Assembly: GCA_002269645.1 (NCBI GenBank)
Contig: NIVC01000011.1
Coordinates: 124,001 to 188,000 of the forward strand
Direction of reading: 5' to 3'
DNA length: 64,000 bases
Source of the DNA: Macrostomum lignano
Lineage: Eukaryota
In this document: piece after piece, positions 5,306-63,589 of the stretch
Layout of the letters: each line of letters opens with the position of its first letter
Numbering within the stretch: the stretch's first letter is position 1
The notes under the pieces: generated by a model
The model's input: the letters and a program-made list of their open reading frames with translations, nothing else
Databases searched by the model: none
What the model was told of the DNA's origin: nothing
Made by a program: the position numbers and the translations under genes

Positions 5306-6052
5306 CTACATAAGTCTGCACTGGTTCCTTCTCAGAGCCTCTTGCACCCTGGCCGACGCGGCCTTGTGACCGGAATCGCGCTGCTCGATTGCCTTCAACA
5401 ATTCGCGGAACGCTGCACTGACTCGCCAGTTGTACTTGGCTGAGCACTCGGCATAGGTGCACTTCCACTGCTTGCGCACGATGTTGCTAATATCGCTCTT
5501 GCTGCCTCCCTTGGCTTCTTTGTTGTTTCGACTGGCTGAATCAGCTGCTAGATCGGCTTTATTAGCCGCAACTAGAGTTGGGACGCTGATACCTTGGTCT
5601 AATAGGCGTTGTCTCACCTGGCGCACGTACTGGAAGCTGAGCTCCTCCGTGATGTCGAATACCAGCACGTAGGCGGTGGCCGACCGCAAGCCGCAGCCGC
5701 GGTAACAGCTGGAAAACTCCTGCAGAGAATCCTCCGGAAAATACTCCAATGGTGGGCAGTCAACTAAACGGGTGTCGTACGTTCGGTCGTTAACCGAAAT
5801 AGACGGCCGATGAACGATAGGTCTCACTGTCGGCTCGTAGACTTCGGGGCATTCGCAATGGACAAACTGTTGAACCAAGCTGGTTTTGCCGACGGCTTGA
5901 GCTCCTAAAACTGCAATCCGAAGCAGTGCTGGCTGCGACGGTCGATGCACCGCCCCAGCGTCTTGGTCGGCAGGGCCACCGGCTCCGATACCATTGGTGT
6001 CAGCTGTTGCCAGCCTTTGGCAGATGCCGTTTTGCTGGCTTTGCTGTTGCAT
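5306..6052 (-). CDS. RASL10: Ras-like small GTPase, RASL10 (RASL10B-like) family, 248 aa, intronless
   Basis: G1 GAQAVGKT, atypical G3 DCPP, GLRSATAYVLVFDI, G4 NKAD, VRKQWKCTYAECSAKYNW, and C-terminal ALRRNQCRLM (CaaX). These closely parallel my recollection of vertebrate RASL10B. Confidence 0.9.
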   Translation of the reverse strand: MQQQSQQNGICQRLATADTNGIGAGGPADQDAGAVHRPSQPALLRIAVLGAQAVGKTSLVQQFVHCECPEVYEPTVRPIVHRPSISVNDRTYDTRLVDCPPLEYFPEDSLQEFSSCYRGCGLRSATAYVLVFDITEELSFQYVRQVRQRLLDQGISVPTLVAANKADLAADSASRNNKEAKGGSKSDISNIVRKQWKCTYAECSAKYNWRVSAAFRELLKAIEQRDSGHKAASARVQEALRRNQCRLM

Positions 6053-6951
6053 GCTCTGATATGCTTGCGTTGCTAATAACAGATACTAGGATTTAAATAC
6101 ACTTGGACTGGGCTGGACTGGGCTGGAATTAAGACTTGTCCATCAACCTCTTCTTTCGAGCAGGATATTTTCTGCCGGTCGGAGAAATTCTCTGATTCGC
6201 TTTGTTAGCTTGTCCAATTAAATTGCTCGCTTGTCGAAAAATTCTCGCGATAGAAGACGGTCTTTTCGACCTTCTCAGCCCGGCGCTGGGAGCTGTTTAT
6301 CAACCTTGCCAATCAGTAGGGAACGAAAGACCCATTGGCACAGCGCTATCTGCCAACAAGAAAGTAGTAAAGTGTGGCAACATGGCCAAGGCACTTGGAC
6401 TGCTCGAAGGGAACTCCCGATGGAAAGTAGGAAGAGTGAGAGCTTCTGCGTCGATCGATCTTCTTTTTAGAATGAAATAGTCGCAGTTGCTATCGCAGTA
6501 AACAGACGGAGGGGTACTCGTATCGTTTTAATTCAGTATGGTACAATGCACCTACGCCTTCTAATAACTGTTTTCTGTAAAAACTAAAAAAACTTAAAGC
6601 TCTAAGAAGGATTAATCTAAAACCACACAAACCACATAATAGTCTTTCACGGAGAAACACTTTTTATCGAATCCTTGAAACATCTGTTCTTCAGCTGGCA
6701 CTATGACTTTGTATTATGTATTTGATGCGCACATAGGAAATGAAACTTCGAAATTGCTTCTTTCACCAAGAAACTTTCTTTCGATGCTTTCTTCTCTTTG
6801 TCTATGGACAAGCCTGCAACCAAATGGCTATAGCTTTAGTGTTCAGAAGCTAGGACGCTACTTGAGGATCCGTCCTTCTCAGTCCTTCCGTCCGTTCTGA
6901 TATATTTCAACATCCGTTATTTTATCTATGAGCCAAAAACTTATTGAAAGC

Positions 6952-8657: not shown

Positions 8658-8812
8658 CTTGAATTGGCCTAAAAATTATTCTACAACTTTGGTTCTCTGA
8701 CTTTGAGAGTTTCTACGCTTTGAGAGTGCTGGGTGGTTTTTTACAGGCGTAAAAACCTTGGTTTTAATTGCAATACACAAATTGGTGCTTGTTGGACCAA
8801 AGCAGCAGCGTT

Positions 8813-9789
8813 TCGTACCATAGACAAACACTCGTACCATAGACAAACACTCGTACCATAGACAAACACTCGTACCATAGACAAACACTCGTACCATAGA
8901 CAAACACTCGTACCATAGACAAAGACTCGTACCTTAGGCGAATGCTCGTACCAAAGACACAAACACTCGTACCATAGACAAACACTCGTACCATATACAA
9001 ACACTCATACCATAGACAAAGACTCGTACCATAGGCGAAGCTCTTACCAAAGACAAACACTCGTACCATAGACAAAGACTCGTACCATAGACAAACGCTC
9101 ATACCATAGAAAAAGACTCGTACCATAGGCGAATGCTCGTACCAAAGACAAACACTCGTACCATAGACAAACACTCGTACCATAGACAAACACTCGTACC
9201 ATAGACAAACACTCGTACCATAGACAAACACTCGTACCATAGGCGAATGCTCTTACCAAAGACAAACACTCGTACCATAGACAAAGACTCGTACCATTGA
9301 CAAAGACTCGTACCATAGACAAAGACTCGTACCTTAGGCGAATGCTCGTACCAAAGACAAACACTCGTACCATAGACAAAAACTCGTACCATAGACAAAC
9401 GCTCATACCATAGACAAAGACTCGTACCATAGGCGAATGCTCGTACCAAAGACAAACACTCGTACCATAGACAAACACTCGTACCATAGACAAACACTCG
9501 TACCATATACAAACACTCGTACCATAGACAAACACTCGTACCATAGACAAACACTCGTACCATAGGCGAATGCTCTTACCAAAGACAAACACTCGTACCA
9601 TAGACAAAGACTCGTACCATAGACAAACTCCCATACCATAGACAAAGACTCGTACCATAGGCAAAGACTCGTACCATAGACAAAGACTCGTACCAAAGAC
9701 AAACACTCATACCATAGACAAACTCTCATACCATAGACAAAGACTCGTACCAAAGACAAACTCTCATACCATAGACAAAGACTCGTACC
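8813..9789. repeat. 19-bp minisatellite (~50 copies), interrupted by the LTR element and resuming at 21424-21460
   Basis: Unit CTCGTACCATAGACAAACA with variants. It continues as TACCATAGGCAAATGCTCGTACCAAAGACAAAC right after the right LTR. Confidence 0.95.
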
Positions 9790-10825
9790 TGATGTGTTCC
9801 TTATTACCCGACTTCGGTAATCAAAGAACAATCACTTCTAGCTCTTTAGCTAGGCAACCCAGTAATTCAAACGAAAGTATTCAATTACCTTGACTTCTTA
9901 TGAGATATCTCTCCTTTTAGTCCTTCGTAGATCTCGTGTAGATCTCGATCTGTAGTTCAGGCCTGAATTCGACTCGACTTGTAGTCCTGGTCCGAGTTTC
10001 TCTTTTCTTCTTTTGCCGGCCGGTATCTGTCGTTCGGACCAATTAGAAGCTTCCAAATTAACAATGGGTACCCTGCGCCAAACTGCGGTTTAATATAAGC
10101 CTACTCCTTCTAGCAGTGCCTCTATGCACTCTAGGTATAGCTCCGGAAACCACTGATAGTCTTCTAAGATCTATCAGGGGCAGTCCTTCTGGAGACTGCA
10201 ACCAGTAGAGTCTAAACAGACTCAGGAGTCTCAACAGACTCAAACTAAACTCCAACGAGACGTCTCAAAACACAGGCGCAAATGAGTAAGGCTTACCGCA
10301 AGAACTCGACGAGTCTTCAGTAGGAAGTCCTGTAGTGGCTTCCTCTTCGGAGCTCTTCTCCTTCCGGAGGAATTGTGGCTCCTGGTCCGTTCCGGACCAC
10401 TTGTATTTATAGGCGTTCAGACCTCTCTCGAGGTCGTACATCACTGTCTTCGCAAATGTCAAAGGGTCACGATTCGGTGGCTGTCAAGCATGACAGGGTA
10501 GAAAGTTGCGCAACTAGTCTACTGTAAAAGCGCATGATTGGTTACCGTAGCTGGTAGACTTTGATTGGTTCATCCGGGTGCAACCCGAGTGCAAACCAAA
10601 TGATGACTTGAAGGTGGGGTTTGAATTGACAGTTGTTGGTCGCACGTGATTGGGTGATTTCTAAAATTAGCATGCTCGAGGTCTCTCTCTTCCTATTGGT
10701 TAGTCCGAATATACTTTAGTTCAATGCATACCTTCATTCATGCTCTTCAATTTACTACTAAATAAAATGTGTGAGTAGTACATTAACACTTTTATGTCTT
10801 CTTACGGGAGGTAGAACACTCTACA
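9790..10825 (-). repeat. 3' LTR (1036 bp)
   Basis: Direct repeat of 20387-21423. I saw three differences by eye (2 substitutions, 1 indel). Confidence 0.97.
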
Positions 10826-10840
10826 AAATCTCCCATGTTT
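10826..10840 (-). other. Putative polypurine tract (weak)
   Basis: AAACATGGGAGATTT directly precedes the 3' LTR on the minus strand. Purine-rich but short and interrupted. Confidence 0.4.
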
Positions 10841-11046
10841 ACAAAAAACTCGTCCCGAGTTTTAAATTATAGATGATTGAAACGCATAAAAAGTACGAGC
10901 ATGTCTTTATAAAAATCTTTTGTCACAAGTGTTACAGGTATTTAGTAATGGGTAGTTAAGAGCGTTAGTTATAAAAGTTATTTAAAGGTAAGTATACGCA
11001 TGCAAATGAAATGTTTTTGGTTACAGTATTGACATGTGCGCCAAGA

Positions 11047-11259
11047 CTAACAATAGGCGCACTGCCGCAAACTTCTTCTACCTATCGGGCAATTCTGCCA
11101 GAGCTGAATATAATGTGAGTCGCTTAAACATTGTCCGCATATGCGATGTCTGTTTTCACAAATAATTGGTGGCTTGACAGCCAAGTCATCAGTTAAACAT
11201 ATTGGGCATTCGTAGAGTTGCTGTAGTTGGGGCGCCTGTTTGGACAGTGCGTTGCCCAT
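11047..11259 (-). CDS. 70-aa accessory ORF: N-myristoylation motif plus C3HC4-type RING finger
   Basis: MGNALSK fits MGxxxS. CPIC-x12-CENRH-x2-CGQC-x12-CPI(G)RR, where the last ligand codon GGT is one base from TGT. Strong start context ACAATGG. Confidence 0.7.
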   Translation of the reverse strand: MGNALSKQAPQLQQLYECPICLTDDLAVKPPIICENRHRICGQCLSDSHYIQLWQNCPIGRRSLRQCAYC

Positions 11260-11370
11260 TGTCGTCGTCGCTTGAAGTTTGAAGTCGCTCAGATTAGTCG
11301 CCTCTTACGACAAGCTTGCGAAGCTGTAGAGCTATTCTGACCCGGTCTCTACACGGGTTGTTTTCGCAAC

Positions 11371-13223
11371 TTAACGAGGTCGCAGATTGTAGCCATGTTG
11401 CTGGTTCTCGGTTGATGTTTGTGTCTCCTCGTGTTTTGTTGCGATGTGGCGGTTCGCCGAACGCGTGCGATCAGCGTTGTCTAGTGACGGTAAAAACGTT
11501 GTCGTGTCAGTGTTGATCTTCTTTAGTCGATGAATGCGCACGTAGAATTGGTGCTGATGAGGATCTTGCACATTGGCCAGGCGTGCCGTTGTCGGTGACG
11601 TTAGTTGGACCACTCGATATGGTCCTTTGTACTTCTGTGCGTGTTTGTGCGTCTGTTGCGGCGGATAGTGCAGGTAGACGATGTCGCCGGCTGTCAGAGT
11701 TGTCGATCTCGTGTCGGTGCCGGTGGTTAGAGCCACCTGATTGTCGATGTTGTGCTTGGCTACTTTCCATGCGAGGTGTAGTTGCGTGACGAACTTTTGA
11801 ATGGACGTCGGGACTTCCACATATTGCGATGGTAGTAGTTGCTGTGCCAATAGGTTTGGCGGCTGGAAGTCTCGCCCAAACATTAGAAAGAATGGCGTAT
11901 TGTCCGTTGATCGATGAATAGCGCTGTTGTAGGCCATTGTTACTGCTTGCAGATAGATGATCCAGTCGTCCGGTTGTTGATGCGCGAAGTGTGTAATCAT
12001 CTCGTGTAGGTTGCGGTGAAACCTTTCAACCATGTTCGCCTTCGGATTGTAGGTCGATGTGTAGATCTGCGTGATGTTGAGGATCTTCACCACTTGCTGA
12101 AAGAGTTGAGACGTAAACTGCGATCCATTGTCCGATGTGAGGTTCTTTGGCGTACCGTACTTGCAGATGATGTCGTTGAAGAAACTCATTGCCACTGTCT
12201 GAGCTGTGATGTCCGGTATTGGTATGGCAATAGCAAACTTTGAGAAAATGTCCAAGGCTGTTAGGATGTAGGTGTAGGCTATGCCATGGAGACAGCTCGG
12301 TGGCAGCGGTCCGGTGATGTCGATGCTGAGACAGTCCATAGTTGTTGACTTTGGTATCGATTGTAGCTGTGGTTTTTGTCGTCGTCCTGTCTTCGATGCT
12401 GCGCATGAGTGGCAGTTGTTGCAATACTGCTTGATGTCGCCATGCATGCTTGGCCAAAAGTAGTATTGCTCCACTCTTGCAACGGTTTTGGCTGCCGACA
12501 GGTGTCCAGCGAGTGGGTTGTCGTGCAGCTCGTTGAGAATTGCCTGCCTAAACGAATATGGCATGTAGATTTTAGGTTTGTTGTCACTCATCCAGTAGAG
12601 TCGTGACTTGTTGATTGTTAAATGTTGTCGCTGCTTGCGCAGGAATTTTCGTTCCACGGGGCTGAGCTTGATGTCCTTGTCGTTGTTTTTAACTGCTATG
12701 TAGAAGTTGTCGTGTTCCGTCTCATCCACCAATTCCTTGATGTTAGGAATTGGATGAATGGCGTTGACTTCGTAGGTTCTTGACAGAGCGTCCGCAGCCT
12801 TGTTAGTAATTCCTGGTTTGTAGACGAGCTTGTAGTTGTAGTCCTGGATCTTGAGTGTCATCCTGATGAGTCGGTTGTTTGTTTGTCCTTTTGTAGTTAC
12901 GACGTAGGTCAGCGGTGCGTGATCTGTGCGTACTATCGTCTGTAATGGAGATCCATAGATGTAGTAGTGAAACTGTCGTAGGGCGAACAGAACTCCTAGT
13001 AGTTCTCGTTCCGTAGCTGACCATTTTGTCTCATTCGGTTTAAGTGCTCGACTGACGTAGGCTATAGGTCGTTCCTTTTTGTCTTCAGTTTCCTGTAGTA
13101 GGACTGCTCCGAGTCCCGTTCCTGAGGCGTCTGTCTCGATGATGAAGGGTTTGTCGAAGTCCGGATGCTGTAGCAGTGCGTCTGATGTCAGCTGTCGTTT
13201 GATTTCGTCAAAACTTTCTTGTT
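11371..13223 (-). CDS. pol: pol 3' part: RNase H and integrase (HHCC, DDE, GPY/F)
   Basis: Open frame from 13212: FDEIKRQL...IETDASGTGLGAVL...ERELLGV...TDHAPL; HDNPLAGH...CNNCHSC; SIDITGP...SDNGSQF...VERFHR; KYKGPYRV. Confidence 0.95.
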
Positions 13224-14213
13224 CGTGACGGTAAAAACGTTGTCGTGTCAGTGTTGATCTTCTTTAGTCGATGAATGCGCACGTAGAATTGGTGCTGATG
13301 AGGATCTTGCACATTGGCCAGGCGTGCCGTTGTCGGTGACGTTAGTTGGACCACTCGATATGGTCCTTTGTACTTCTGTGCGTGTTTGTGCGTCTGTTGC
13401 GGCGGATAGTGCAGGTAGACGATGTCGCCGGCTGTCAGAGTTGTCGATCTCGTGTCGGTGCCGGTGGTTAGAGCCACCTGATTGTCGATGTTGTGCTTGG
13501 CTACTTTCCATGCGAGGTGTAGTTGCGTGACGAACTTTTGAATGGACGTCGGGACTTCCACATATTGCGATGGTAGTAGTTGCTGTGCCAATAGGTTTGG
13601 CGGCTGGAAGTCTCGCCCAAACATTAGAAAGAATGGCGTATTGTCCGTTGATCGATGAATAGCGCTGTTGTAGGCCATTGTTACTGCTTGCAGATAGATG
13701 ATCCAGTCGTCCGGTTGTTGATGCGCGAAGTGTGTAATCATCTCGTGTAGGTTGCGGTGAAACCTTTCAACCATGTTCGCCTTCGGATTGTAGGTCGATG
13801 TGTAGATCTGCGTGATGTTGAGGATCTTCACCACTTGCTGAAAGAGTTGAGACGTAAACTGCGATCCATTGTCCGATGTGAGGTTCTTTGGCGTACCGTA
13901 CTTGCAGATGATGTCGTTGAAGAAACTCATTGCCACTGTCTGAGCTGTGATGTCCGGTATTGGTATGGCAATAGCAAACTTTGAGAAAATGTCCAAGGCT
14001 GTTAGGATGTAGGTGTAGGCTATGCCATGGAGACAGCTCGGTGGCAGCGGTCCGGTGATGTCGATGCTGAGACAGTCCATAGTTGTTGACTTTGGTATCG
14101 ATTGTAGCTGTGGTTTTTGTCGTCGTCCTGTCTTCGATGCTGCGCATGAGTGGCAGTTGTTGCAATACTGCTTGATGTCGCGATGATGTCGCGTGGATCA
14201 AGAGTGGAGCAAT
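13224..14213 (-). other. Templated insertion in pol: 957-bp copy of the element's own integrase region plus a complex junction
   Basis: 13225-14181 matches 11484-12440 (offset 1741). It is flanked by the direct repeat ACTTTCTTGTT at 13213-13223 and 14214-14224. 14199-14216 is the reverse complement of 12462-12479. Confidence 0.9.
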
Positions 14214-16303
14214 ACTTTCTTGTTGCTTTTGTGTCCAATTCTCCTGCTTCCATTTGTCGAACTTGAGCAGGTCGTACAGCGGCTTTGCTGTCTTCGCGAA
14301 GTTGGGTAAGAACTTTCGGAAGTATTGCGCAAGTCCAAGAAATGATTGGACCTTCGTTTTGCTAGTTGGCGTAGGAAACTTTTTCACTTTATCCACGTTG
14401 TCTGGGTCCGGTGAAATTCCTTTGGCTGTCACCTGATGTCCCAGGTAACGCACGTTGTCTCGGAAGAATTTGCATTTAGTTGGTTGTAGCTTCAGACCTT
14501 GACGTTGTATAAGCGCGAGGGCCTTCTCCGTCGCTTCATAGAGTCGTTCGAAGTCTTCTCCGTAGGCCAAGATGTCGTCAACATAGTGCAACAGGTTCGT
14601 GCATCCTGCAAGCATGTATGCTGTTAGTCGGCTCATCGTTGCTGGGCTGTTGCTGAGTCCCATCGGCGATCGATTGTACTCGTATACTTGTCCATTGTAG
14701 GTTTTGAAAGCCGTGTACTGTCGTGACTCTTTCTCGATTTCAATTTGCCAAAATCCATGACGTAGATCGAACACTGTGAACAATTTTGCCGTGTTGAGCT
14801 TTGCTAGTAGTTCGGAGATCTTCGGTAGGCTTTGCTGATCCGTCGGTATGTACTTGTTCAGTAGTCTGAAGTCACATACGAGTCGTCTTTCGTTAGTCTC
14901 CTTCTTTTGCACCAAGAGACATGGTGATGAGTATGCTGAAATGGCTTTGCTGATGATGCCGTGTTTCAGCATTTTGTCGATAATCTCATCGAAGTGCTGT
15001 TGCAGATGCTTGGCGATCGGGTACGGTTTGCACTGAATTGGTTCCGTGTGCGGCAGAAGTTTGATTTCCTGTTTGATGTCCTTGGCTCGTCCGATGTCGT
15101 AGTCATGGTGGCAGAAAGCGTCGTTGTACTTCCACAACAGCTGTCGAACTTTCCTCTTTTGCTGTTCCGTAATCGGGCTGTCATCCAAATTGATCTTCTT
15201 TTGAAATTCTTCCTCTGTTAGTCGTGGAGTCGCTTGCTCAATCAGCATAACCGATGCTTGGGTGTTGAGATGACCGATGCACATTCCTTGTCGTAGATGA
15301 ACCGTTTCTGTGTTCGGGTTGAATATTTGTACTGGCAGCTGTTTATCTTTTGCAACCAGTACTAGTGCCGTAGGCATCATAATTTGGTGTTTAGCCGTGA
15401 CTCTTCTGTTTGGGTCGAATATCATTGCTTCCTCCGTTGCGTTAGTTGCCTTTGCCTTTATCCAGCAGGCGCTCTCCGGTTGGATGATGACATCTTGTTG
15501 CAATGTTACTTTTGGTAGTACTCGGATCTGGTTGATCAATGGTTGTTCTACCGAGTCGATCTTAAACGTTTGCTTATTGAAGTCGAAGGTCAATGGTAGT
15601 CTAAGCTGCTTGAACGTGTCGATGCCAACAATAACGTCCTGGTTTGGGAGTCTGTCGATGACGTACGATGGAACTGTCAAATGTTTATTAGCGATTCTTA
15701 AATCAATGTCGGCTTTTCCCAGAATGTTTAGCGAATGTCCTCCTGCTCCTGCAACTGCGATTGTTGCTGGCCGTAGAGCAAGTCGTAGCTTGTTGCACAG
15801 TTGTTTTGATATAACTGTGATGGAGCTGCCGGAGTCGAGTAGCGCTCGACATGGTAGATTGTTGATTACCACTTGAGCCATGGCTTTGCCAATTTCGGCG
15901 TGTAGAGTACATACGTAGTTCTCTGGCCATTTTGGGTCTTGCTGTTCTGCTTGATAGTTGGGTGGTTGTATTCTTGGTGCCGTTGGTGTTGTCGGAATCG
16001 ATGGATATAGCCGCGTTGCTAGTGTCGGTTGCCCTTGAACCTCACGATGTGCAGTTTCTGTTAGTTCTAAACTGTTGTCGCCTTCCGTTGTCGTTCTTTG
16101 CATTATGGCATTAACTGTCTTCTTAGCTCTTGGACAAGTTTGACTGAAGCACCGTACGATTGACGAAATGATGAAGATTGCCGTGACAATCCACACAATG
16201 CAAGCACCGTAGAAGATGAATCCTTGATAGAGACTTCCTCTTCCATTGAGCAGCTCCCAGAAGCTGTTTGTCCAAAATGATTTGATGGCGCTGTCCATTG
16301 AAA
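14214..16303 (-). CDS. pol: Env membrane-proximal region and TM anchor, linker, aspartic protease, spacer and reverse transcriptase, all in one frame
   Basis: SFWTNSFWELL...FIFYGACIVWIVTAIFIISSIVRCF (TM, ~16220-16150); ALLDSGSSITVI (~15835); RLVCDFRLLN, DLRHGFWQI, PMGLSNSPAT, YVDD (14574-14585). Confidence 0.93.
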
Positions 16304-18551
16304 CAAGGACGGGAAATCTTCCTGTCCGGTTCCTTTGTCCTTTCTTGTGAACAGCTGGTGAATCATCTTGCGTTGGGTGATGAACGCTTGCAAGAAGTCG
16401 TTGATCGTCCATCCTGGTGTTATCTCGTCAAGTTGGATATCGGCGAATGGCGTATACTTCGTTCTGTTGAATCGGATTTTCAAATCCTCCATGTCGTAGT
16501 TTTCGTCGACGATTACTTCCGGTTCTGTGATGTTTGCTGTCGTTCCAGTTGTTTTGATGACGTGTAGTGCATTGTCCAGTTGATAATAGTTTGCTGCCGT
16601 GGTGCAAGGTCTCGGTATTGCGGTGCCAACGATGATGTTGTGTACCGTGTCCAAGAATCCCTGAATTCGTTTTCCTTCGTAGAACGCTTCAATCCTTGGC
16701 TTGTCGTAGCAGGTTGTTGACGTGTTCGACGGCAAGATGTTAAAGTGCTGTATCGGCGTGCACTTGTATATCAACAGATGCTCGTATATTGGAACTGCCA
16801 AAACGTTCGTCATTCCGGTGATTTTACGAAAAGTCATCGTAGGGTTGACATAGTAGTTTTGTCTGGCATAATTTAAGTTGATTGCGTGCATTTTGCAAGT
16901 TAGCTGGACCAGTGTTCGATGCAAGTGGTTTAACTGGTTGTGTAGATTGTGATCCAAAGCCGTTATCTTTGCTGACAGTAGTCGGTTTGACACCAGTTTG
17001 GGACGTTCGATGTCACGTCGTCGTCTGTTCTGTTGTTCCTGCTGTTGATACGTTCCGTTGATGATCGCCAGAAAGGTTTGTTTGTCGTCATCTTTTACGT
17101 AGACTGGTATCTCTTGTTCCGAGATGAATAGTGTCTTGTCTGTATCCTTGCATTTCAGTTTTTGCTCGACTGGTTTCTTTTGAAATGTCAGTGCCAAGTC
17201 TCCTGACTTTGCCAAAAACGTGTTTGACAGTAGTCCTCCTTCAACTGTGTGATACTTTTGAAGCTTGCAGTCAATTTCCGGCTCAACTTCCCACGCGAAG
17301 AAGTATTGTCGTGACTTAGATGGTTCTTCATATCGTGAGTCGCCTCTGCGTATAATTTGCCATCGATAGTCTTGATGATATGTTGGACTCAACGGTAAGC
17401 TGTATAGTTCCTCATTCCGCAGTATCGGCGTTGGACACCATCCTTTGCTGTATCGGCAGTCACTTAATTGCAGTTGTAGCGACTCCATTTTTTCAAAAGG
17501 ATTGTGGTAGAATGGAATATTCCTGATTAGGTAACTGTTTCGTGTCATGTAGTTAGTCCATGCTTCCGAAAAGTGTACATATCGTCCGTTTGCTGAGTTC
17601 TTCGTTCGGTAAAGTTGTGCCTCCCCCACTTTCTCATCCGGTTCTAGCTGACCATCCTTTGAGAACAGTGTTTGGTTCCATTGTAGACATTCAGCGTGCG
17701 ACACATGTAGTTCGTGTTGCCAAAATCGAATTCTGTTCCACTGTCCTCGCCAAACTTTTTCCACTAGGTGCTTGTCTCTAAAGCACACTATTCCGAGTTG
17801 TCGATGCTTCTTGATGTTAGCTTTGTAGAGATCAATTGTGATCTTCTTTGGCTTCGTCTGGTTTGTCTTGAAGTAGCTGCATTTGATGTCGGTTGGTATC
17901 TTGTAGATCATCGGTTGGATATGCGCATCCGTTGGACATATCATTGGTTTCTCCATTGCTGTTGCTTTGGTGACTACTGCCGTCAGTAGTATTATGATGA
18001 TCCAGAATATCCAGAATCGCCATTTCCTGAACGTTGCCGTTGTCTTTGCTGGCATTGGCTGCGGCTGCCATTCGTTATCTTCTGCGTCCGCATCGTATTC
18101 TTCCTCTTGTTCCATTGGCGTTTCCGAGCGCAAGGCATCCGATTCGTTCCGCTGCTTGTCGTCTTCATCATTTTCTTCCTTGCTTTCTTCCGATGTTGTA
18201 GTTTTGTCACTCCATTGTCTGCGGTACCTTACTTCGGCCTTGTAGTCGACCGTTTGAATGTAGGCTTCACCATTTCGTTTATATCGGATCTCGTAGCATT
18301 GATCGCTGTCGGAGCTTAGATTTCTTTCTTCCATTCCTTTGTGCCTTCCGTCTTCATGTTCTTTGTCGGCGGCTTGGTTGTCATCAGCGTCATTCTGCAT
18401 CTCATAATCGTGATCGCTGCTTTCTTCTTGCTGTTCTTCTTCCATCTCTGTATTTCCGTCGTTGCTTCTTTCTTTGTCATCCTTCGTTGCCAGTTCTTTG
18501 TCGTTGCCTTTGTTTGTTTCTTCTTTTCTTTCACTGATGTCGCTTGCAATG
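16304..18551 (-). CDS. env: Acidic linker, internal signal/TM segment and envelope-like glycoprotein ectodomain
   Basis: Hydrophobic FWIFWIIIILLTAVVTKATA (18016-17957). Cys-rich ectodomain with N-glycan sequons (NQT x2, NGT, NTS, NIT, NRT). Furin-type RRRR/D at 17015-17026. Confidence 0.8.
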
Positions 18552-19690
18552 TTTTTTCTGTGCTCACTTCTGTCTTTTCTTCTTCGCTGTCAATGTTAGT
18601 TTCTTTCATTTCGACCATGCTGATGTTTTTTGTCTTTTCGCTGCTCTCCGCATCGAGCCAGTCGATTTCATTGATAGTGAAGTCCATTTCCAAGTCGTCT
18701 ATCGTGAAGACTTGCTGCTCTTGCTGTTCGCTTTCCGGTGTGTACGTGATGGCGTTTGCATATCGTTGCATCGCTTGCGTTGGTTGCTTGGGCATGTATC
18801 TGGCGTTTCGCGGTCTGTAGCCATTGTTTCCTAAGCGTTTCGTGTTTTGCTGCTGCCAATTTTGATGCTGCTGTTGCCATGGTTTTTGCGGCTTCCGTCT
18901 GTTGAATGGCTGTCGCGGCATATCATTTCTTGTTGACCGATGAGGACAATGTATTTGGTAGTGTCCTTCTCGTCCACAGTAATAGCATCTGGCTTGGGCT
19001 CGTTCATTTTGTCTTTTTTGTTCGGCGATAACGGCTGTTTGATGTTGCATCAGTTTGTTTAGTTGCTGTGTCAGTTTCTGCACTTCTGTGTTGCCGGTTG
19101 TCATTAGTGGAGCGCTTGCTTCCCACTGCATTCCGCACCGTAAAAGGTCTTCCTCGGTTTCAATGTTTCGCGCAAAAGTCTATCCGCAGTGACGGCTGTG
19201 CATTGTTTATTACGTGCAGGATGAGGTTTTGTTCACGGTCCATCAATCGTTGTCGCTCTCTTGCGGCTAACTCCGCTGCGCCTGGAGGTGGCTGATCCGC
19301 AGCTGGCAGCGTTGGCTGATGCAGTGCCTTAATTATTTGACGTATATCGTCCACGAAGGTCAGGAAGGATTCTGTTGGCTGCATCCGTCTGTTATGCAAC
19401 TTGTGCAGTAGCACTGACCTGTTTGTGCCACAGCGGTTGAAGTGTGCGCGCAGTTGAATGATTAATGCTGGGTAGTTTTGCTGTGTTGCCGCGCCTAGTT
19501 TACCATAAATCTCTCGTGCAGTGCCTTGGAGGAGTGGTGGCAACAGTTGCGCTTTTTCTGGATTTTGTAGGTTGTATTCCCTACATACCAGGTCAAAATG
19601 ATCAACAAAGGTGTTAAAGTCTTTTTCCATAGAAAAGGTGCCAACTGTCTCTTTGATATCTCTGTGCACCGTTGGATTGCGCCGCGCCAT
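18552..19690 (-). CDS. gag: Gag: capsid-like domain and CCHC zinc knuckle, split by a 1-nt indel at ~19175
   Basis: FNTFVDHFDLVC...KAQLLPPLLQGTAREIY capsid-like segment; CYYCGREGHYQIHC knuckle; Q/N/R-rich nucleocapsid tail. Confidence 0.88.
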
Positions 19691-20373
19691 GTTGTTGATG
19701 GGATAGAACGGTAGCTCTAGGTCTGGGTCGATTTGTAATGGATCTTCCAGTGTGGTGTTTCTTTCGAAATAAACTTCGGTTGTAACTGATTGTCTCGCGG
19801 CGCTTTTGACACCTCAATTTGTTATGTCTGACCTTGAACGGAATTCGGCTTTTGGCTGCTTTTTCTGACCTCTTATTCGCTGGCTGATTTTCGCACTTAT
19901 GCGGCGTCCCGCAAAGTGTATCTTTAAAGTGCTTGAAGTGCAGCTGCTTCTTGCTTTTTTCAAAGGCCTTTCTTGTCTTCGTGACGTGCCTTGTCACGTT
20001 TTATCAAATTTCGGTTTGTTTTAGCTTTCGTCAAGTGTTTTTAATTTCGGTTTTGTTTTAGTGTGTATTGATTATTTTTCGGTTTGTTTTCAGTGTACCG
20101 GACGTTGTTTTCGGTTTTGTTTAAGGTTTACTCTTGCTCGAGCTCGTTAAAAACAAAAATTTAACACGCGTGCTCAAACGTTACTCAAAATTGACAGGTA
20201 CTCAAGCCTGTATACCTAAGCTTTTACTCGAGTTTCAAATCGTACAAAAATCGAAAAGTGTCGAAAAGTGTTACCTCTAACACGTGCGCGCAAAATTAAT
20301 GAAGTCGCTCTTTCGTCACTTTACAATAGCTTGGCCAGGCTATTGCTCAAAAGTTTGAGTAGTGCCGAGAGGG

Positions 20374-20384
20374 CGAGATCACCA
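20374..20384 (-). other. Putative primer-binding site
   Basis: TGGTGATCTCG starts 2 nt after the 5' LTR CA end. TGG is complementary to tRNA CCA. Confidence 0.6.
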
Positions 20385-20386
20385 AT

Positions 20387-21423
20387 TGATGTGTTCCTTA
20401 TTACCCGACTTCGGTAATCAAAGAACAATCACTTCTAGCTCTTTAGCTAGGCAACCCAGTAATTCAAACGAAAGTATTCAATTACCTTGACTTCTTATGA
20501 GATATCTCTCCTTTTAGTCCTTCGTAGATCTCGTGTAGATCTCGATCTGTAGTTCAGGCCTGAATTCGACTCGACTTGTAGTCCTGGTCCGAGTTTCTCT
20601 TTTCTTCTTTTGCCGGCCGGTATCTGTCGTTCGGACCAATTAGAAGCTTCCAAATTAACAATGGGTACCCTGCGCCAAACTGCGGTTTAATATAAGCCTA
20701 CTCCTTCTAGCAGTGCCTCTATGCACTCTAGGTATAGCTCCGGAAACCACTGATAGTCTTCTAAGATCTATCAGGGGCAGTCCTTCTGGAGACTGCAACC
20801 AGTAGAGTCTAAACAGACTCAGGAGTCTCAACAGACTCAAACTAAACTCCAACGAGACGTCTCAAAACACAGGCGCAAATGAGTAAGGCTTACCGCAAGA
20901 ACTCGACGAGTCTTCAGTAGGAAGTCCTGTAGTGGCTTCCTCTTCGGAGCTCTTCTCCTTCCGGAGGAATTGTGGCTCCGGGTCCGTTCCGGACCACTTG
21001 TATTTATAGGCGTTCAGACCTCTCTCGAGGTCGTACATCACTGTCTTCGCAAATGTCAAAGGGTCACGATTCGGTGGCTGTCAAGCATGACAGGGTAGAA
21101 AGTTGCGCAACTAGTCTACTGTAAAAGCGCATGATTGGTTACCGTAGCTGGTAGACTTTGATTGGTTCATCCGGGTGCAACCCGAGTGCAAACCAAATGA
21201 TGACTTGAAGGTGGGGTTTGAATTGACAGTTGTTGGTCGCACGTGATTGGGTGATTTCTAAAATTAGCATGCTCGAGGTCTCTCTCTTCCTATTGGTTAG
21301 TCCGAATATACTTATAGTTCAAAGCATACCTTCATTCATGCTCTTCAATTTACTACTAAATAAAATGTGTGAGTAGTACATTAACACTTTTATGTCTTCT
21401 TACGGGAGGTAGAACACTCTACA
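20387..21423 (-). repeat. 5' LTR (1037 bp)
   Basis: Direct repeat of 9790-10825, followed on the minus strand by the PBS and gag. Confidence 0.97.
21001..21296 (-). promoter_or_regulatory. LTR U3 promoter: TATA box and four CCAAT boxes
   Basis: Minus-strand TATAAATA at 21001-21008. CCAAT at 21134-38, 21161-65, 21246-50 and 21292-96. All are mirrored in the 3' LTR. Confidence 0.65.
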
Positions 21424-21733
21424 TACCATAGGCAAATGCTCGTACCAAAGACAAACGCTCAATTTCTCCGTACTTTGGCAAGCATAACTCGGATCAAATT
21501 CAATGCGTGGAGGCCAAAATTGGCTGCAAAAAGCTATATTAAAAGATTGGTTTTCGCTAGACTCCAAAGTTCTTAGGTACACGAGCACGAGTGCACACGA
21601 AGGTTTAAAAAAGAAACACAAACTGGAAATTTAGCAATAATCGAATTACAAAAACTATACAGTTAGCTCGTAAAAGACGAAAAATTAAATTGGAAAATCT
21701 GTAAATGGGATTTATTTCGATTTCTTTAGCAGA

Positions 21734-24700
21734 ATGCTGCTAAAATTTCTGTCAATTAGTTTTTTTATTGGATACTTTATTGATACTGGCGACTGGTTTT
21801 AGGATAAATATAATTGAACAAAAATTTTCAACAATAAGCAACTCAACTGGAAGAGTATACCGTTGAACTTTGTTATCGAGCAACTGCCGAATAAAAATGA
21901 TTTAAAACTAGCAATCAGCCTTTGGTGCAGCAGTCAAAATTCGGCCGGTCGTATTGTACTGCAAAGCAATTAATCTGCCATTTTTGTTGCGCGACGAAAC
22001 ATTCTGTGAGACGGAGTTTCCTGTGAAGATACGGACCACCGATTCTGAATGGTTTAAGTCGGATAACCAAACCAAGTATAGTTTGAGACTTTCTATATAC
22101 AGAGAATCCAGAAATCAAGCAAGCTTGAACTTTAAGGACACGTTCCGAAAAAGTTTGAGACTGAAATTTTTCTTCATTAGCACCGAGTGGAGCCTGGAAA
22201 CCAACAGCCTGTACCTGTGGAATTGGGAATCTGCGTTTAGCAGCGCAAACGTGAGGCCAACCCATCCTCAGCACCAGACTAATAGATACTTTTTGACTGA
22301 CGCAGCAATCAACTTGATAATGAACTCTGAATGGCCAAGATCGGGCAACTCTTTCGAATCAATTCAGTTTATAGAGCCAAGCTTAGTACATCGGATCAAC
22401 CATACAACAGAGTACGTTCGAAACTATATAAACATCGAGGCTATCATGCTACTGGGATTTGGAATTGCATCTGAATGTTGGACTTCTCGTCCCGAGTACA
22501 CAACTGTGTACGCATCTCGCAAGGCTGGCACTCTTGAGCAGCATTCGATTTCATGCTCAAAGTTTGTTATTTGGACAGGGAAACAGGAAAGCTGACATTC
22601 TCGCGGCATGGACTTAGCCGTGCGCTGGTTCGCTTCAACGAGCTCAATCGCAAGCAGCTTGTGTGGCGCGAAAAAAAGGAGTTCTATGATAATTACATCC
22701 TGAGGATTTGCGCTGGTATTCAGCTACAACATAATATGCGACCAGTTACCGAATACCGAAGTGTGCTCACGGTAAAGAATCCGAATTTGGGCTATAAGGT
22801 ACTCGGAGTAGACACGCATGAATGCGAGATTGTCGGTTCGAGTACGAAACGAGTAACTTTTTTCTCCGATTCCGGAATCAACCAACTATAGTATGCCCGA
22901 TTGTCTGCTTCAACTCGGGAGCAATTCGTTTTTAGCAGAGGCGACGTAATTTTTTTTATTAGAGGCAGGGGGGTTGTGTGCACCCTGGCGCACTTTAAGC
23001 GACATAGGCACACAACCGGCGAGAGGCATTACTGCCCATTCCGCCGACTCCCCTGAGCAGGCATACAAGCGCGCGGATACGTACGCAGGCACACAATCAC
23101 ACAGGAGTGTACAGCGGCCCTAACTTTATATTATCGTTAGGCATGTACACTTCACTGCGCCTTGGGGGTTGGCTCTCAAGGCCGTTAATTGCACGAGCAG
23201 AGCCAAGCCGAGATTCCAATTCAGCCCCAAATTAATGTGACTGCATTTGGAATCGAGCCTGGGTCGCTGGCACACCAGAGCAGCTGCGCTACCGCTGGGC
23301 TACGGCCCCCCTGAGGCGACGTAATACTTAGACCGAACTCATATCGCGAACTCAACTTAGCGATACAAAACGGGCTACATCAATGACAATGTTTTTGCTT
23401 ACAAAACAAGCAACGTCATAGAAATCCGAGGCGCCCTAACCCACGAAGATGCAGGTCAGTACCAGTGCTCGGCTGGAGGAAAAAAAGTCACCTTTGAAGT
23501 AAGCGTCGTTTTAATGCCACGGTTTACCGAGAAACTGCTTACTGGCGAAAAGATGAATGGTGAGCTGCCCGAAAGAGTCTACGCTATGGAAGGTGAAGGC
23601 TACTACATTAGCTGCACCGTTTTCTATTCAGGATTACATCGTTCTATAACGCTGGAGCCAGAGTTTTATCTAAGATTGCACGGTTCTATCAGGGGCATCA
23701 ACAACTGGACAAAAAGTACTTTTGGAGAGTTTAAAACCAAAGTTAAGACAGCCGAAGCTGAAATAGACACAAGACACAATAGCAAAACAATCACTCTGAC
23801 TGTTGGCCGTATTCCCAAAGTTTGTAGTCCGCAACGCAATTTATTTAATCATCGATATTTGTGCAACGCAGCTGCTTCCTCAGAAGATGCACGTCGCTAC
23901 GGCTTGATGGACTATTCGACGCAGAGTGCTGCAGATGTATATTATCTAGCAAGACCTCGACTAAATGACTTTGATATCACTGTGAGCTACTGCTGTCTGA
24001 GACACTGTCCAACAAGAAATTATTTTGGCGCAAATTGTACCATAACGGTTTCATTGACGCAGGGTGTGCTTAGCTTCTTGAAAACTATCGGACTGATCGT
24101 TGAGACAGGGCTGCTATCATCGCAGCCGGAGTTGACTGATGTCATCTTGAAGCCCTCCAGGATAACTATCACGATTGGAAACCCCGGCTTGCTTAAGTCA
24201 GAGCAGCAGAGGAGAAGTCTACTAGCGGTCGCTCCGATTTTTCGCTATAAGAACGGCAATTCAATAGTCAGTTTGAGTTCGTTTCGAATGATTCGTAGCA
24301 ACGAATCGAACAGCAGCGATGACAGAAAGTGCCTTGCTAACCCAGCGTGCCTATATTCAACTCGGTTTGAGAAAACCCTGGCCAGCCAGCTTACTCTTGC
24401 CGAAATTATTATCTTTAAGGCCAAGACTGCTTCGTTGACTGTACCTTCATGGATCAGTAGTGGTCTGCTCAACCGACAACTGTGGCTCCAGTAAATTTTT
24501 CAAAGGAATCGGTTCGTTCTTTAACAACTAGAACTAATAAAAACATGCGGGAAAAATTAGCAACAAAAACAACAGCTGAGGCAGGAGCAACAAATACGCC
24601 TCCGACAGCAATAGAAGCGAGAACAACGAAGACGCCAAGATCGACAGTAGAACCAAGAACGACAGAGACACCAACAACAACCGAAACAAGAACAACAAAG

Positions 24701-38340: not shown

Positions 38341-40736
38341 GACTGTTTAATCACTGGGTACATTCCGACTATCTGGAGGACCGCTCGGGTGGTCTTCATC
38401 CCCAAGCCTGCCAAAGGCGACTATACTAATGTTAAATCGTTCCGCCCCATCCCATCAGCCTTACATCCTTCTGTATCAAGCTGATGGAGAGACTCATCTT
38501 GTGGAGGCTGCGCGACTGAGAGTTGAGGACGGCACCCATAAGTAAGCACCAATTCGCCTTCCAACCAGATAAAACTACCGAGCACGCTTTGCATGTTATT
38601 ACCTCAGCCATTGAGAAAACTATCCTGAGCAAGCAGATTGCCTGTGGGCTTTGCTGTGACATCGATGGGGCCTTCAATAACGTTTTATTTGGCTCCTTCA
38701 GTGACTCCCTTTTGCAGAAAAAGGTCCGACCCAGCATTGTGCGATGGATCGACTTTATGATCCGAAACAGAAAGGTGACTCCTCCCTCATGAATGCCACT
38801 TGCACCCATACGGTTACTAAGGGAGGAGCCCAGGGTGGGGTGCTTACCCCACTGCTCTGGAACCTCGTGATGGATGAGCTCCTGAGGCTGACGTCCCCAG
38901 CAGCATAGTCAAGGCAGGCTACGCTGATGATGTCGCTGCTATTGTCAGTGGCCCTGACACCAGCACCCTCCGAAGCTTGATGCAGCAGTTCGCCGATAAG
39001 GCGCAAGCCTGGGCTACCCGGCACGGCCTAACCATTAGCACCGCTAAGACGGTGGCCATTATCTTCACCAGGAAGCGGAAGTGGAGCATGGGGAACCTCA
39101 TCATCTATGGTAAGGACATACCCCTAGTCAAGGAAACAAAATATATAGGTGTGACGCTCACTCACGATCTGCGTTGGACCAAGCACGCTGACAATGTCAT
39201 CGGGCGCGCCAGGCGCTTCTTCACCTAGGTGAGGAGAGCCATCGGGCCTACCTGGGGGCTATCTCCCAAGACGGTCAGATGGATCTACACCGACATCATC
39301 CGACCCAGTATCATGCACCTACGCGTGTGTTATGTGGTCCAGTGAGTTGGAGTTGAAGACTGTGCGGGACCGGCTGTACCAACTGCAGGATAACATCTGC
39401 CGAGCCATCACCGGTGCGTATCCACCCACCCCTTACAAGGGGCTCAACACCATCCTCAGCATGCCTCCGCTGCATTTGTTCATTAGAGCTGAGGCGATGA
39501 AGGGCGCCACGCGTCTCATTTGTGATAAATTTATTGCTAACACGCCCTCGGGCTTCATGCCCGAGAAGATTCTCATCCCGCATCTGGACTACATCCGTTG
39601 CGATCTTCAACGCATCCACCTCAAGTTAGACGAGGTGGACTGCAAACCCCCCACTCTCATCCTCAGGAGGGGCTTCAATTGTACCCTTCCACCGAGAGGG
39701 AGCCACCCACTGGACGTGGGCATCAACCGGAGAAGCCAGGGTATTCACTGCTTCACTGACGGATCCCTGTGTGACGGTCTCGTGGGTGCGGGCATTGCCA
39801 TTTTCTACAAGGGTGAGGCGATCTTACAAGAGAGTCTTCATCTTGGTGAGAATGTCTCGGTTTTTCAATCCGAAGTTGTATCTATCAACCAGTGCGCTGA
39901 GCATTTGCACAAAGCTGGCATCAGCAGCTTTGATATTAATTTTTACTCTGACAGCCAGGCCGCTATTATAAGGCCTTGTCTTCCATCAAGCTCTCAACCA
40001 ACTCAGTTTCAAACTGCTTCAAAATCTTGCAGACCCTGGCGATTCTCAACAGGATCAATATGTTATCTGGACACCAGGTCACAGCGACATCCTCGGCAAC
40101 GAGCTTGTGGACCAGCTTGCCAAGCGGGGTTGCACCCCCGATGGAGCGCAACGCTCAGTCAAGTTACCTTCTCCGAAGTCATCAGTCAATCGCGCTTTTC
40201 GAGATTGGCTGAACCGCCAGCATCAGACTCACTGGGACAGCTGCTCCGAATACCGGCAAACACGAAAGGCCATGCCTGCCATTAACCGGAAAGTATCCGA
40301 ATATCTAATCTCCTTAAGTAAAAATTACCTGAGGGAGATGTGCATGGATCATTACTGGCCATGGCTTCTTCCAGAGACATATTTCACTGCAAAGTGGCTG
40401 CTCCCCTATCTGCCCATTCTGTGATTTAGAAGAGGAAACCTCGACGCACCACGTCACTTTCTGCCCGCACTTCAATGAGGCGCGGAGGCGTCACCTCAGT
40501 CACCCGCTATGGCTGGACGAGCTCACCACTCCGGACCGGATCCGCGACCTGCGCGCATTCGTCCGGGATTCTGGGCGGATGAAGATTGCAGACGCCACTC
40601 TCGCGAGCTCTGCTGCCGGCGAGGGACGGGCGCAGCCCCAAGGCTAACGCCTTTCTGTTTTTAGCTTGGGGTTGCAATAGGGGCCTCGCGGCCTATTCGC
40701 GGCGCTCTGCCCCCCGTCGGTAGTAAGTAAGTAAGT
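38341..40736 (+). mobile_element. 5'-truncated, decayed LINE with RT and RNase H (LOA/R1/I-group-like)
   Basis: VVFIPKPAKGDYTNVKSFRPI, HQFAFQPDKTTEHAL, DIDGAFNNV, QGGVLTPLLWNLV, GYADDV; RNase H FTDGS...FQSEV...SDSQAA...[16 protein letters not shown]; (TAAG)n tail; stops and frameshifts. Confidence 0.9.
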
Positions 40737-42162: not shown

Positions 42163-42897
42163 TCACACGAAGTCCTTCCTCATGAGGAACGTGAACCAGT
42201 AGGCCACATTGAACACTAGAAAGCACAGCGGATAGGCAAATACGCAGGCCTGATCGACTTTTTCCGCTTCAAACTGTCCAGCTGTTGCTCCTGATCCGTC
42301 TGGCTGCAGTTGCTGATGCTGCTGCTGATGCTGCTGCCGCTGACGGATCCTTTGAGAGACCTGGTGCTGCTGCCTCTGCGGCCTGTACCAGCTGTGATTG
42401 GCTCCGCGCCGGTGCCAAACGAAATCACCCTCATCCAAATCCACCAGGCCGCAACCTTCTTCGCCATCTTCGTCGTTCCGATTCCGACGGTTTCTAGTAG
42501 AAGCACTGACGTTGCGGATCACATTGTCAACTTCTTCGTCTGTGTCATTGTTGTCGCTGTTGTCTTCGACGTTTTGCTCTTCCGACGCGTCGAGTCGTCG
42601 CATTTCAATGCGCTGATGAAGCTGCTGCCGATTAGAATTCAGATTCCTGCCGTACCGACTGTTCGCTGGCGTCTTGTCCCGCTGTTTCTTCTTGGATCCT
42701 GAGGCCAGAAGATTCCCGCCAAGACGCATCATCTCCTTGCGCATCAGGTTGCGCAGCTCGTCCCTCAGTTGTCGCTGTTCGTGACGCCTGGCGAGCATGT
42801 TCACGACGGCGAACTCGAGCAGAGATGCGGTGACGAATGCCAGACAAGCAAATAGCCAAACGTCGATGGCTTTGATGTAGGAAACTCTTGGAAGATT
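42163..42897 (-). CDS. Cys-loop anion channel exon 4 (M3, long intracellular loop, M4)
   Basis: TTTCAG|AAT; [33 protein letters not shown] ... [22 protein letters not shown]. Confidence 0.95.
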
Positions 42898-43529
42898 CTG
42901 AAAAAAATCATTATTAGGAAGAGCTAATTACTGATGCACAGTTAATCTGTATAAAGCCATGGGAATTCGGAGTTGGGAGTTCAAGCCTGATTAGCTGAAT
43001 TCACTGTCTGGCAGTTAAGCCTGCTTAGACGCATGCATTGTTTGGATTCAATAAGTGGAAAAGCTACTTGTATAGAAAGCCTCACTTGGTTCAGTTGGTC
43101 CCAAAATGAACTACATAAGCTCTCTATTATTGGCATTTTATCCTCAATCAAGCCCATTCAGGCGTGTACAGTCACCTGCTAGCAGAATTGCTATAAACTT
43201 TCACGAGCAACTTAACAAGCACAATGCGTGCTCAACATAAATTGATAAGCTTAATACAGTTTTCTGCTCAAAAATAGAAGCTTAGTAAGCTGCGTTAGTG
43301 TCAATGATAATGATCAATTAGGTGTGTCGTATAGGTATCGGCCTATTTGCTTCGTTTGAAGCATTTTTTCGAACTTTAACTTTCAGTAAATTAGTTTCTT
43401 GAAATCGCAAAAATACTGTGCAAAGTTGGTTTAAACTCGCGATTGATACAGAGATGTCTACCAAACAATTTTAGCTTGGAGCACTGCTTCATACCTTGAC
43501 CCATGTTCTAGAGCCTGGAGGATCGCTTT

Positions 43530-48218: not shown

Positions 48219-63589
<15,371 letters not shown>

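Follow-up and report, generated by a model that had tools for sequence, protein, structure and literature searches.

A 64,000-nucleotide stretch of the genome of the flatworm Macrostomum lignano (assembly GCA_002269645.1, contig NIVC01000011.1, positions 124,001 to 188,000 of the forward strand; hereafter the window, to which all positions refer) carries a long terminal repeat (LTR) retroelement on its minus strand, spanning 9,790 to 21,423. This element is a recent insertion of a multicopy Ty3/gypsy LTR element whose env region lies between gag and the protease. Very probably, the family to which it belongs encodes a predicted class III envelope protein (Env), resembling herpesvirus glycoprotein B (gB), inside a single Gag-Env-PR-RT-RH-IN reading frame (PR, protease; RT, reverse transcriptase; RH, RNase H; IN, integrase), and would use it in an enveloped-particle route.

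The order of genes from LTR to LTR is gag-env-pol. Paired LTRs of the TG...CA type, a target-site duplication, and a primer-binding site identify an LTR element of the Ty3/gypsy (Metaviridae) group, and the PR-RT-RH-IN order with gypsy-type Pfam domains places it in the same group. An 801-bp probe across the Env-protease junction matches at all 40 scored places (73 candidates) with 97 to 100% identity. The features of the window copy, all on the minus strand, are as follows.

21,424 to 21,427: target-site duplication of 4 bp, 5′ side, matching the four bases beside the 3′ LTR at 9,786 to 9,789.
20,387 to 21,423: 5′ LTR, 1,037 bp, TG...CA, with 99.7% identity to the 3′ LTR (2 mismatches, 1 gap).
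20,373 to 20,384: tRNA primer-binding site, a 12-mer that starts two bases past the 5′ LTR.
18,946 to 19,690: capsid region of Gag with its CCHC zinc knuckle (weak matches to zf-CCHC, E 0.031, and to DUF1759, E 0.0036).
18,020 to 18,945: acidic linker of about 306 amino acids from the zinc knuckle to the Env signal, 25% D+E and fast-evolving.
17,957 to 18,016: internal signal-anchor with a basic N-terminal side and an A-x-A end, the predicted signal-peptidase site.
16,224 to 17,956: predicted Env ectodomain of the gB-like class III type, with 12 Cys, six sequons, and, in the window copy, a frame break near 16,326.
17,740 to 17,755: candidate fusion loop 1, of putative function, at the tip of a long beta hairpin.
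17,015 to 17,026: furin-type site RRRR; the loop that holds it, directly before the central helix, is modeled with low confidence.
16,847 to 16,984: predicted central helix of 46 residues, equivalent to gB domain III by profile alignment and AlphaFold model.
16,155 to 16,277: aromatic membrane-proximal stretch and transmembrane anchor, in the same frame as protease and RT.
15,606 to 15,875: aspartyl protease (PF13650, E 1.6e-10), about 95 amino acids past the anchor.
14,430 to 14,909: RT core (PF00078, E 2e-28).
13,219 to 14,188: extra 970-bp integrase fragment inside pol, present in the window copy and in none of the seven sister 3′ stretches described below.
11,371 to 13,227: RNase H and integrase with zinc finger and core (PF17917, E 7.3e-35; PF17921, E 1.4e-20; PF00665, E 1.3e-14).
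9,790 to 10,825: 3′ LTR, which begins with TG and ends with CA.

A first-pass annotation of this DNA had proposed a class III fusion protein of the gB/chuviral-G group, rather than an F-type Env, from a list of sequence features. Nearly all of these features are present: the internal hydrophobic signal (18,016 to 17,957, minus strand), an ectodomain in which we counted 12 Cys, six N-glycan sequons downstream of the signal (17,863, 17,677, 17,059, 16,726, 16,534, and 16,468), the mid-protein RRRR (at 17,026), the LLSAKITALDHNL...LTC helix, which AlphaFold models as a single 46-residue helix (residues 326 to 371), and the LIYKC, ILP...CYDKP, GFLDTVHNII, and PC motifs of the window copy. The aromatic segment and transmembrane anchor, from 16,223, also exist but do not lie in the ectodomain frame of the window copy as had been supposed. 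That frame (16,103 to 18,589) ends in a stop at 16,103 without a hydrophobic C-terminal anchor, and the anchor frame runs on into protease and RT; in an unbroken copy, signal and anchor are about 580 amino acids apart. All 12 Cys are conserved (28 to 43 aligned rows per column, with at most one miss each), and this conservation across relatives exceeds the chance expectation. The furin site is retained in both M. lignano subfamilies of the element.

Three lines of analysis, which have one alignment partly in common, addressed the fold class: a family profile compared with Protein Data Bank (PDB) sequences, Pfam, and an AlphaFold model compared by Foldseek and VIA-align. All agree on a gB-type class III protein rather than an F-type one, as the earlier annotation had it. 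The 45 PDB sequence matches of the family profile are herpes gB without exception (best E 2e-15), and at profile positions Env residues Cys 8, 27, 355, 400, 417, and 452 align with six Cys of Epstein-Barr virus (EBV) gB, which we take to be paired as disulfides at the N-terminus, the central helix, and domain IV. The ectodomain model (predicted local distance difference test score, pLDDT, 79.7; predicted template modeling score, pTM, 0.57) matches gB and nyamivirus G in these comparisons; a structural check of this kind was suggested alongside the original claim, and no class I or II protein is found among the 31 listed PDB rows. The predicted domains are those of the gB type, consisting of an elongated beta fusion domain, one or more domains like the pleckstrin homology domain, a long central helix, and a beta crown (domain IV). 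Thus, a class III, gB-like fusion fold is supported for the modeled Env ectodomain.

The narrower label offered earlier, that of a chuviral glycoprotein, fares less well. In BFVD, rank 1 is a Nyamiviridae G (E 5.5e-26) and rank 2 a Nyavirus G, and the best viral-model matches overall are nyamivirus G and gB-like proteins of herpes- and entomopoxviruses. Because the first chu-named row appears only at rank 20 (E 6.9e-16; some rows are nameless), "chuviral" does not appear to be the closest label. With gB of EBV, Kaposi's sarcoma-associated herpesvirus, herpes simplex virus (HSV), and human cytomegalovirus and with Nyamiviridae G, Env shares the predicted domain set and order, the six aligned Cys, and the predicted positions of a furin site ahead of the central helix and of a candidate hairpin fusion loop. 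It differs from them in its low identity (10 to 15%), shorter length, count of 12 Cys, and place within a retroelement polyprotein and, unlike in the herpesvirus gB system, no gH/gL partner is encoded in the element.

A HMMER search was run over 1.84 billion representatives, and Pfam was run on all 51 matches. Several results weigh against the gB-like assignment or against a fusogenic Env. The window Env scores 23.5 bits (E 1.6e-5) against PF24664 (Monjiviricetes_fusion), under the curated cut-off of 27 bits that several relatives exceed; by sequence it appears related to this family and is not counted as a member. A single-sequence PDB search with the window Env found no gB, and one of the 51 relatives has a weak Baculo_F match (E 2.8e-4) in its C-terminal part. 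Global superposition on gB is poor (TM-score 0.24 to 0.30, rmsd 44 to 49 Å), which, together with the pTM of 0.57, we read as probable differences in hinge and conformation. Finally, W70 stands at the hairpin tip. Its column is hydrophobic in 26 of 28 relatives and the one that follows in 24 of 29, but at this second position the window Env is polar, and therefore the fusion activity of Env is not assured. A second aromatic stretch lies at residues 127 to 137, with no placement in three dimensions.

Could Env instead be a fusogen of class I (F-type) or of class II, or else a membrane protein captured from the host? A furin site with a long helix downstream is compatible with class I too, the Baculo_F match points the same way, and flavivirus E and arenavirus GP clusters occur among the low Atlas leads (0.86 to 0.87). 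However, class I and II proteins are absent from the 45 PDB sequence matches, from the 31 PDB rows listed by Foldseek, and from the 50 rows of VIA-align, and 29 of the 51 relatives match PF24664 or the herpes gB family PF00606 at E ≤ 0.001. Such an identity is extremely improbable and, by the PDB, Foldseek, VIA-align, and Pfam results, is refuted at the level of prediction.

The relatives also bear on gene order. An aspartyl protease follows Env in the same protein in 14 of the 51, one of which represents the window family, and a Gag marker precedes Env in 11; a single relative belongs to BEL/Pao and carries Env downstream of integrase. A second M. lignano family (the P0004 cluster; 2,852 to 2,859 amino acids in one frame), whose Env is 30% identical to the window Env, carries knuckle, Env, PR, RT, RH, and IN and is annotated as host hypothetical proteins. 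This family and one nematode protein are among the 10 relatives that were looked up. More than one apparent aspartyl-protease domain was seen in the relatives P0038 (near residues 1,186 and 1,489), P0022 (near 321, 1,804, and 1,977), and P0047 (two motifs), and P0006 has a NADAR domain (E 8.5e-16) upstream of its gB-like Env.

In the window copy, the coding region is interrupted such that overlapping frames occur at 19,168 to 19,184, at 18,546, and at 16,326. Taken at face value, this arrangement is what would be expected if programmed ribosomal frameshifts linked Gag, Env, and Pol as distinct frames that overlap; so is a break near 16,129, directly past the anchor, that recurs in 4 of 11 copies. 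The sister copies (13 5′ stretches, two of which end at a contig end, and seven 3′ stretches) argue otherwise. At 16,326, between the ectodomain and anchor frames, 13 of 13 stretches differ from the window, as do 11 of 11 in a comparison of 11 copies. The same is true of the Gag breaks near 19,168 (12 of 12) and 19,184 (11 of 12) and of the linker break near 18,546 (8 of the 9 aligned). Contigs from all four sequencing runs (four studies) contradict the window at all four break sites, at full or dominant depth. In 9 of the 13 stretches, one frame covers furin site and anchor and runs on into the protease; two are open from capsid to protease, one in each subfamily, and three of the seven 3′ stretches are open from RT through the end of IN. 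The database protein A0A0M4HFM6 (Macrostomum lignano) runs from late Env to integrase with no stop and is 95% identical over its Env part. A frameshifted layout is thus very improbable and largely refuted by the run contigs and open sister copies. A point on the other side is that 11 of the 13 stretches carry breaks, at scattered sites, in the part from capsid to protease. From the open sister copies, the run contigs, and A0A0M4HFM6, we conclude that the family has one Gag-Env-PR-RT-RH-IN frame and that the window copy is damaged, through either assembly error or mutation. As assembled, the window copy is nonfunctional.

Two further irregularities were observed. The 970-bp integrase piece (13,219 to 14,188) sits between RT and RNase H, is 99.6% identical to 11,477 to 12,448, and reflects either an assembly error or a template switch. 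Breaks also recur at the equivalents of 16,129 and 17,951, each in 4 of 11 copies (L002, L003, L006, L007, L010, and L012). Two of the copies with recurrent breaks share a 5′ flank and may represent one duplicated insertion. These recurrent breaks mark either error-prone sites or a defective sublineage.

Given that a single open frame spans Gag, Env, and protease in sister copies, Env is expected to form a two-pass luminal loop. In the window element, basic residues lie before the first hydrophobic segment and after the second, and the same bias is found in 13 of 15 (first segment) and 18 of 21 (second segment) locatable relatives among the 51. By the positive-inside rule, basic flanks of membrane segments face the cytosol. 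Gag and Pol should therefore be cytosolic and Env luminal.

In the most likely route, the polyprotein would be threaded twice through the membrane of the endoplasmic reticulum. Signal peptidase would cut past the first segment, leaving a membrane-tethered Gag apart from Env-Pol, and furin would nick Env at RRRR, ahead of the central helix. Env would trimerize as a class III fusogen. Acting from the cytosolic face, the element protease would release capsid and enzymes within an enveloped particle as it buds, and this particle may enter other cells by class III fusion.

Selection was assessed on one pair of natural copies, L014 and L019, one per subfamily, over the equivalent of window positions 15,000 to 19,700. 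The ratio of nonsynonymous to synonymous divergence (dN/dS) is 0.024 for Gag, 0.41 for the linker, 0.079 for pre-furin Env, 0.074 for post-furin Env (a value that rests on 10 differences), and 0.056 for PR-RT. Env is thus under purifying selection, with dN/dS of about 0.08. These values bear on the possibility that Env keeps its class III fold without fusing membranes, the element being intracellular and Env retained as locked in the polyprotein, with the double membrane crossing needed for Pol. Any stop or shift in Env removes Pol too, so that the frame would be kept open without a fusion role, and most relatives have a more hydrophobic candidate fusion loop. Nevertheless, the Env value lies near that of PR-RT and far under that of the equally frame-locked linker, and both the furin site and the full set of 12 Cys are conserved. 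We regard a nonfusogenic Env as unlikely.

Synonymous divergence (dS) between the subfamilies is a mosaic, with values of 0.87 for gag, 0.67 for the N-terminal half of Env, 0.04 for its C-terminal half, 0.11 for the tail, and 0.51 for PR-RT. The fall from 0.67 to 0.04 occurs at the furin site, and Env identity is 90% before and 99% after it. Together, the low Env dN/dS and the dS mosaic point to a constrained Env and to exchange between the subfamilies by recombination or conversion; the pattern suggests that such recombination, recent in date, may have covered the C-terminal half of Env. The low-dS patch (0.04 versus 0.5 to 0.9 flanking) is expected if the RNAs of the two subfamilies are co-packaged.

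The surroundings of the element include a 19-bp tandem array (8,736 to 9,790) that adjoins its 3′ end and many minisatellite arrays, with units of 16 to 45 bp, across the window. A Ras-family GTPase frame (5,306 to 6,085, minus strand; PF00071, E 4.6e-21) lies 3.7 kb from the 3′ LTR, and a ligand-gated ion channel transmembrane region occurs at 42,163 to 42,927 (minus strand; PF02932, E 7.7e-21). Frames of 294 to 377 amino acids without a clear Pfam family are found at 23,361 to 24,494 (plus), 39,233 to 40,285 (plus), 54,202 to 55,086 (minus), and 56,910 to 57,968 (plus).

The earlier comparison with BEL/Pao-type elements such as Anakin and Tas, in which env follows integrase, does not hold, since the host element is Ty3/gypsy and its env is flanked by gag and protease. 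Anakin, attributed to Dezordi et al. (2020), is reportedly a BEL/Pao element with a chuvirus-like glycoprotein. Both are LTR elements with a class III glycoprotein, predicted in our case; unlike Anakin, the window element has Ty3/gypsy-type Pfam domains without a Pao peptidase, and its Env lies ahead of the protease. A 2022 study by Sacco et al. of nematode endogenous retroviruses reportedly describes a continuous gag-env-pro-pol frame with a Nyamiviridae-like glycoprotein, features that agree with the single frame and the top BFVD matches of the element described here. Those elements have nematode hosts, whereas the host here is a flatworm.

This kind of element and its gene order have already been published. 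Chary and Hayashi (eLife 2026; PMC13524379) describe gB-type Env in Ty3/gypsy elements across animals, classed as such via GyDB profiles and called "errantiviruses", with the order GAG-ENV-POL in Nematoda, Bryozoa, and Platyhelminthes. The elements with this order are not monophyletic, and Env ahead of pol is also cited there for a nematode metavirus (PMC13524379). The window element shares the features of gB-type GAG-ENV-POL errantiviruses, with Env between gag and pol, two flanking hydrophobic segments, and multiple copies. In their table, only one M. lignano row is among the nine Rhabditophora rows, namely Platyhelminthes_Rhabditophora_Mlig_errantivirus_2 (ENV_HSV, 16 copies, LTR 863 to 864 bp; PMC13524379). 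Our element shares with it Ty3/gypsy pol, gB-type Env, gag-env-pol order, multiple copies, and an identical 12-nucleotide primer site. The sister subfamily, whose LTR of about 865 bp fits the published length, is very likely Mlig_errantivirus_2, as linked by LTR length and primer site; the window subfamily, unlike it, has an LTR of 1,037 bp and is separated from the sister subfamily by a gag dS of 0.87. The main text of that paper speaks of three open reading frames, and the terms "fused", "polyprotein", "in-frame", and "single ORF" are absent from it (PMC13524379); thus the single-frame layout is not stated in the main text. Our literature search, which left most subscription journals outside its reach, returned no paper that addresses how such polyproteins are assembled or what their membrane topology is.

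One more LTR element with a class III envelope adds little beyond what is in print. The useful part is the layout, in that a single frame with a luminal Env predicts a membrane-tethered Gag and an Env-tethered Pol. Our tentative extension, which we hold to be a real possibility, is that virion assembly would be unlike that of retroviruses, with a two-pass polyprotein, Gag:Env:Pol at 1:1:1, Gag carried on the Env signal peptide, and Pol carried on the Env tail rather than as Gag-Pol; the RNAs of the subfamilies would be co-packaged, making this a live two-strain system of enveloped retroelements. The question raised is how a virion would arise from a membrane-tethered polyprotein with these 1:1:1 proportions. 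The family, both young and abundant, resides in an apparently tractable laboratory flatworm, where native particles and their processing would be directly observable.
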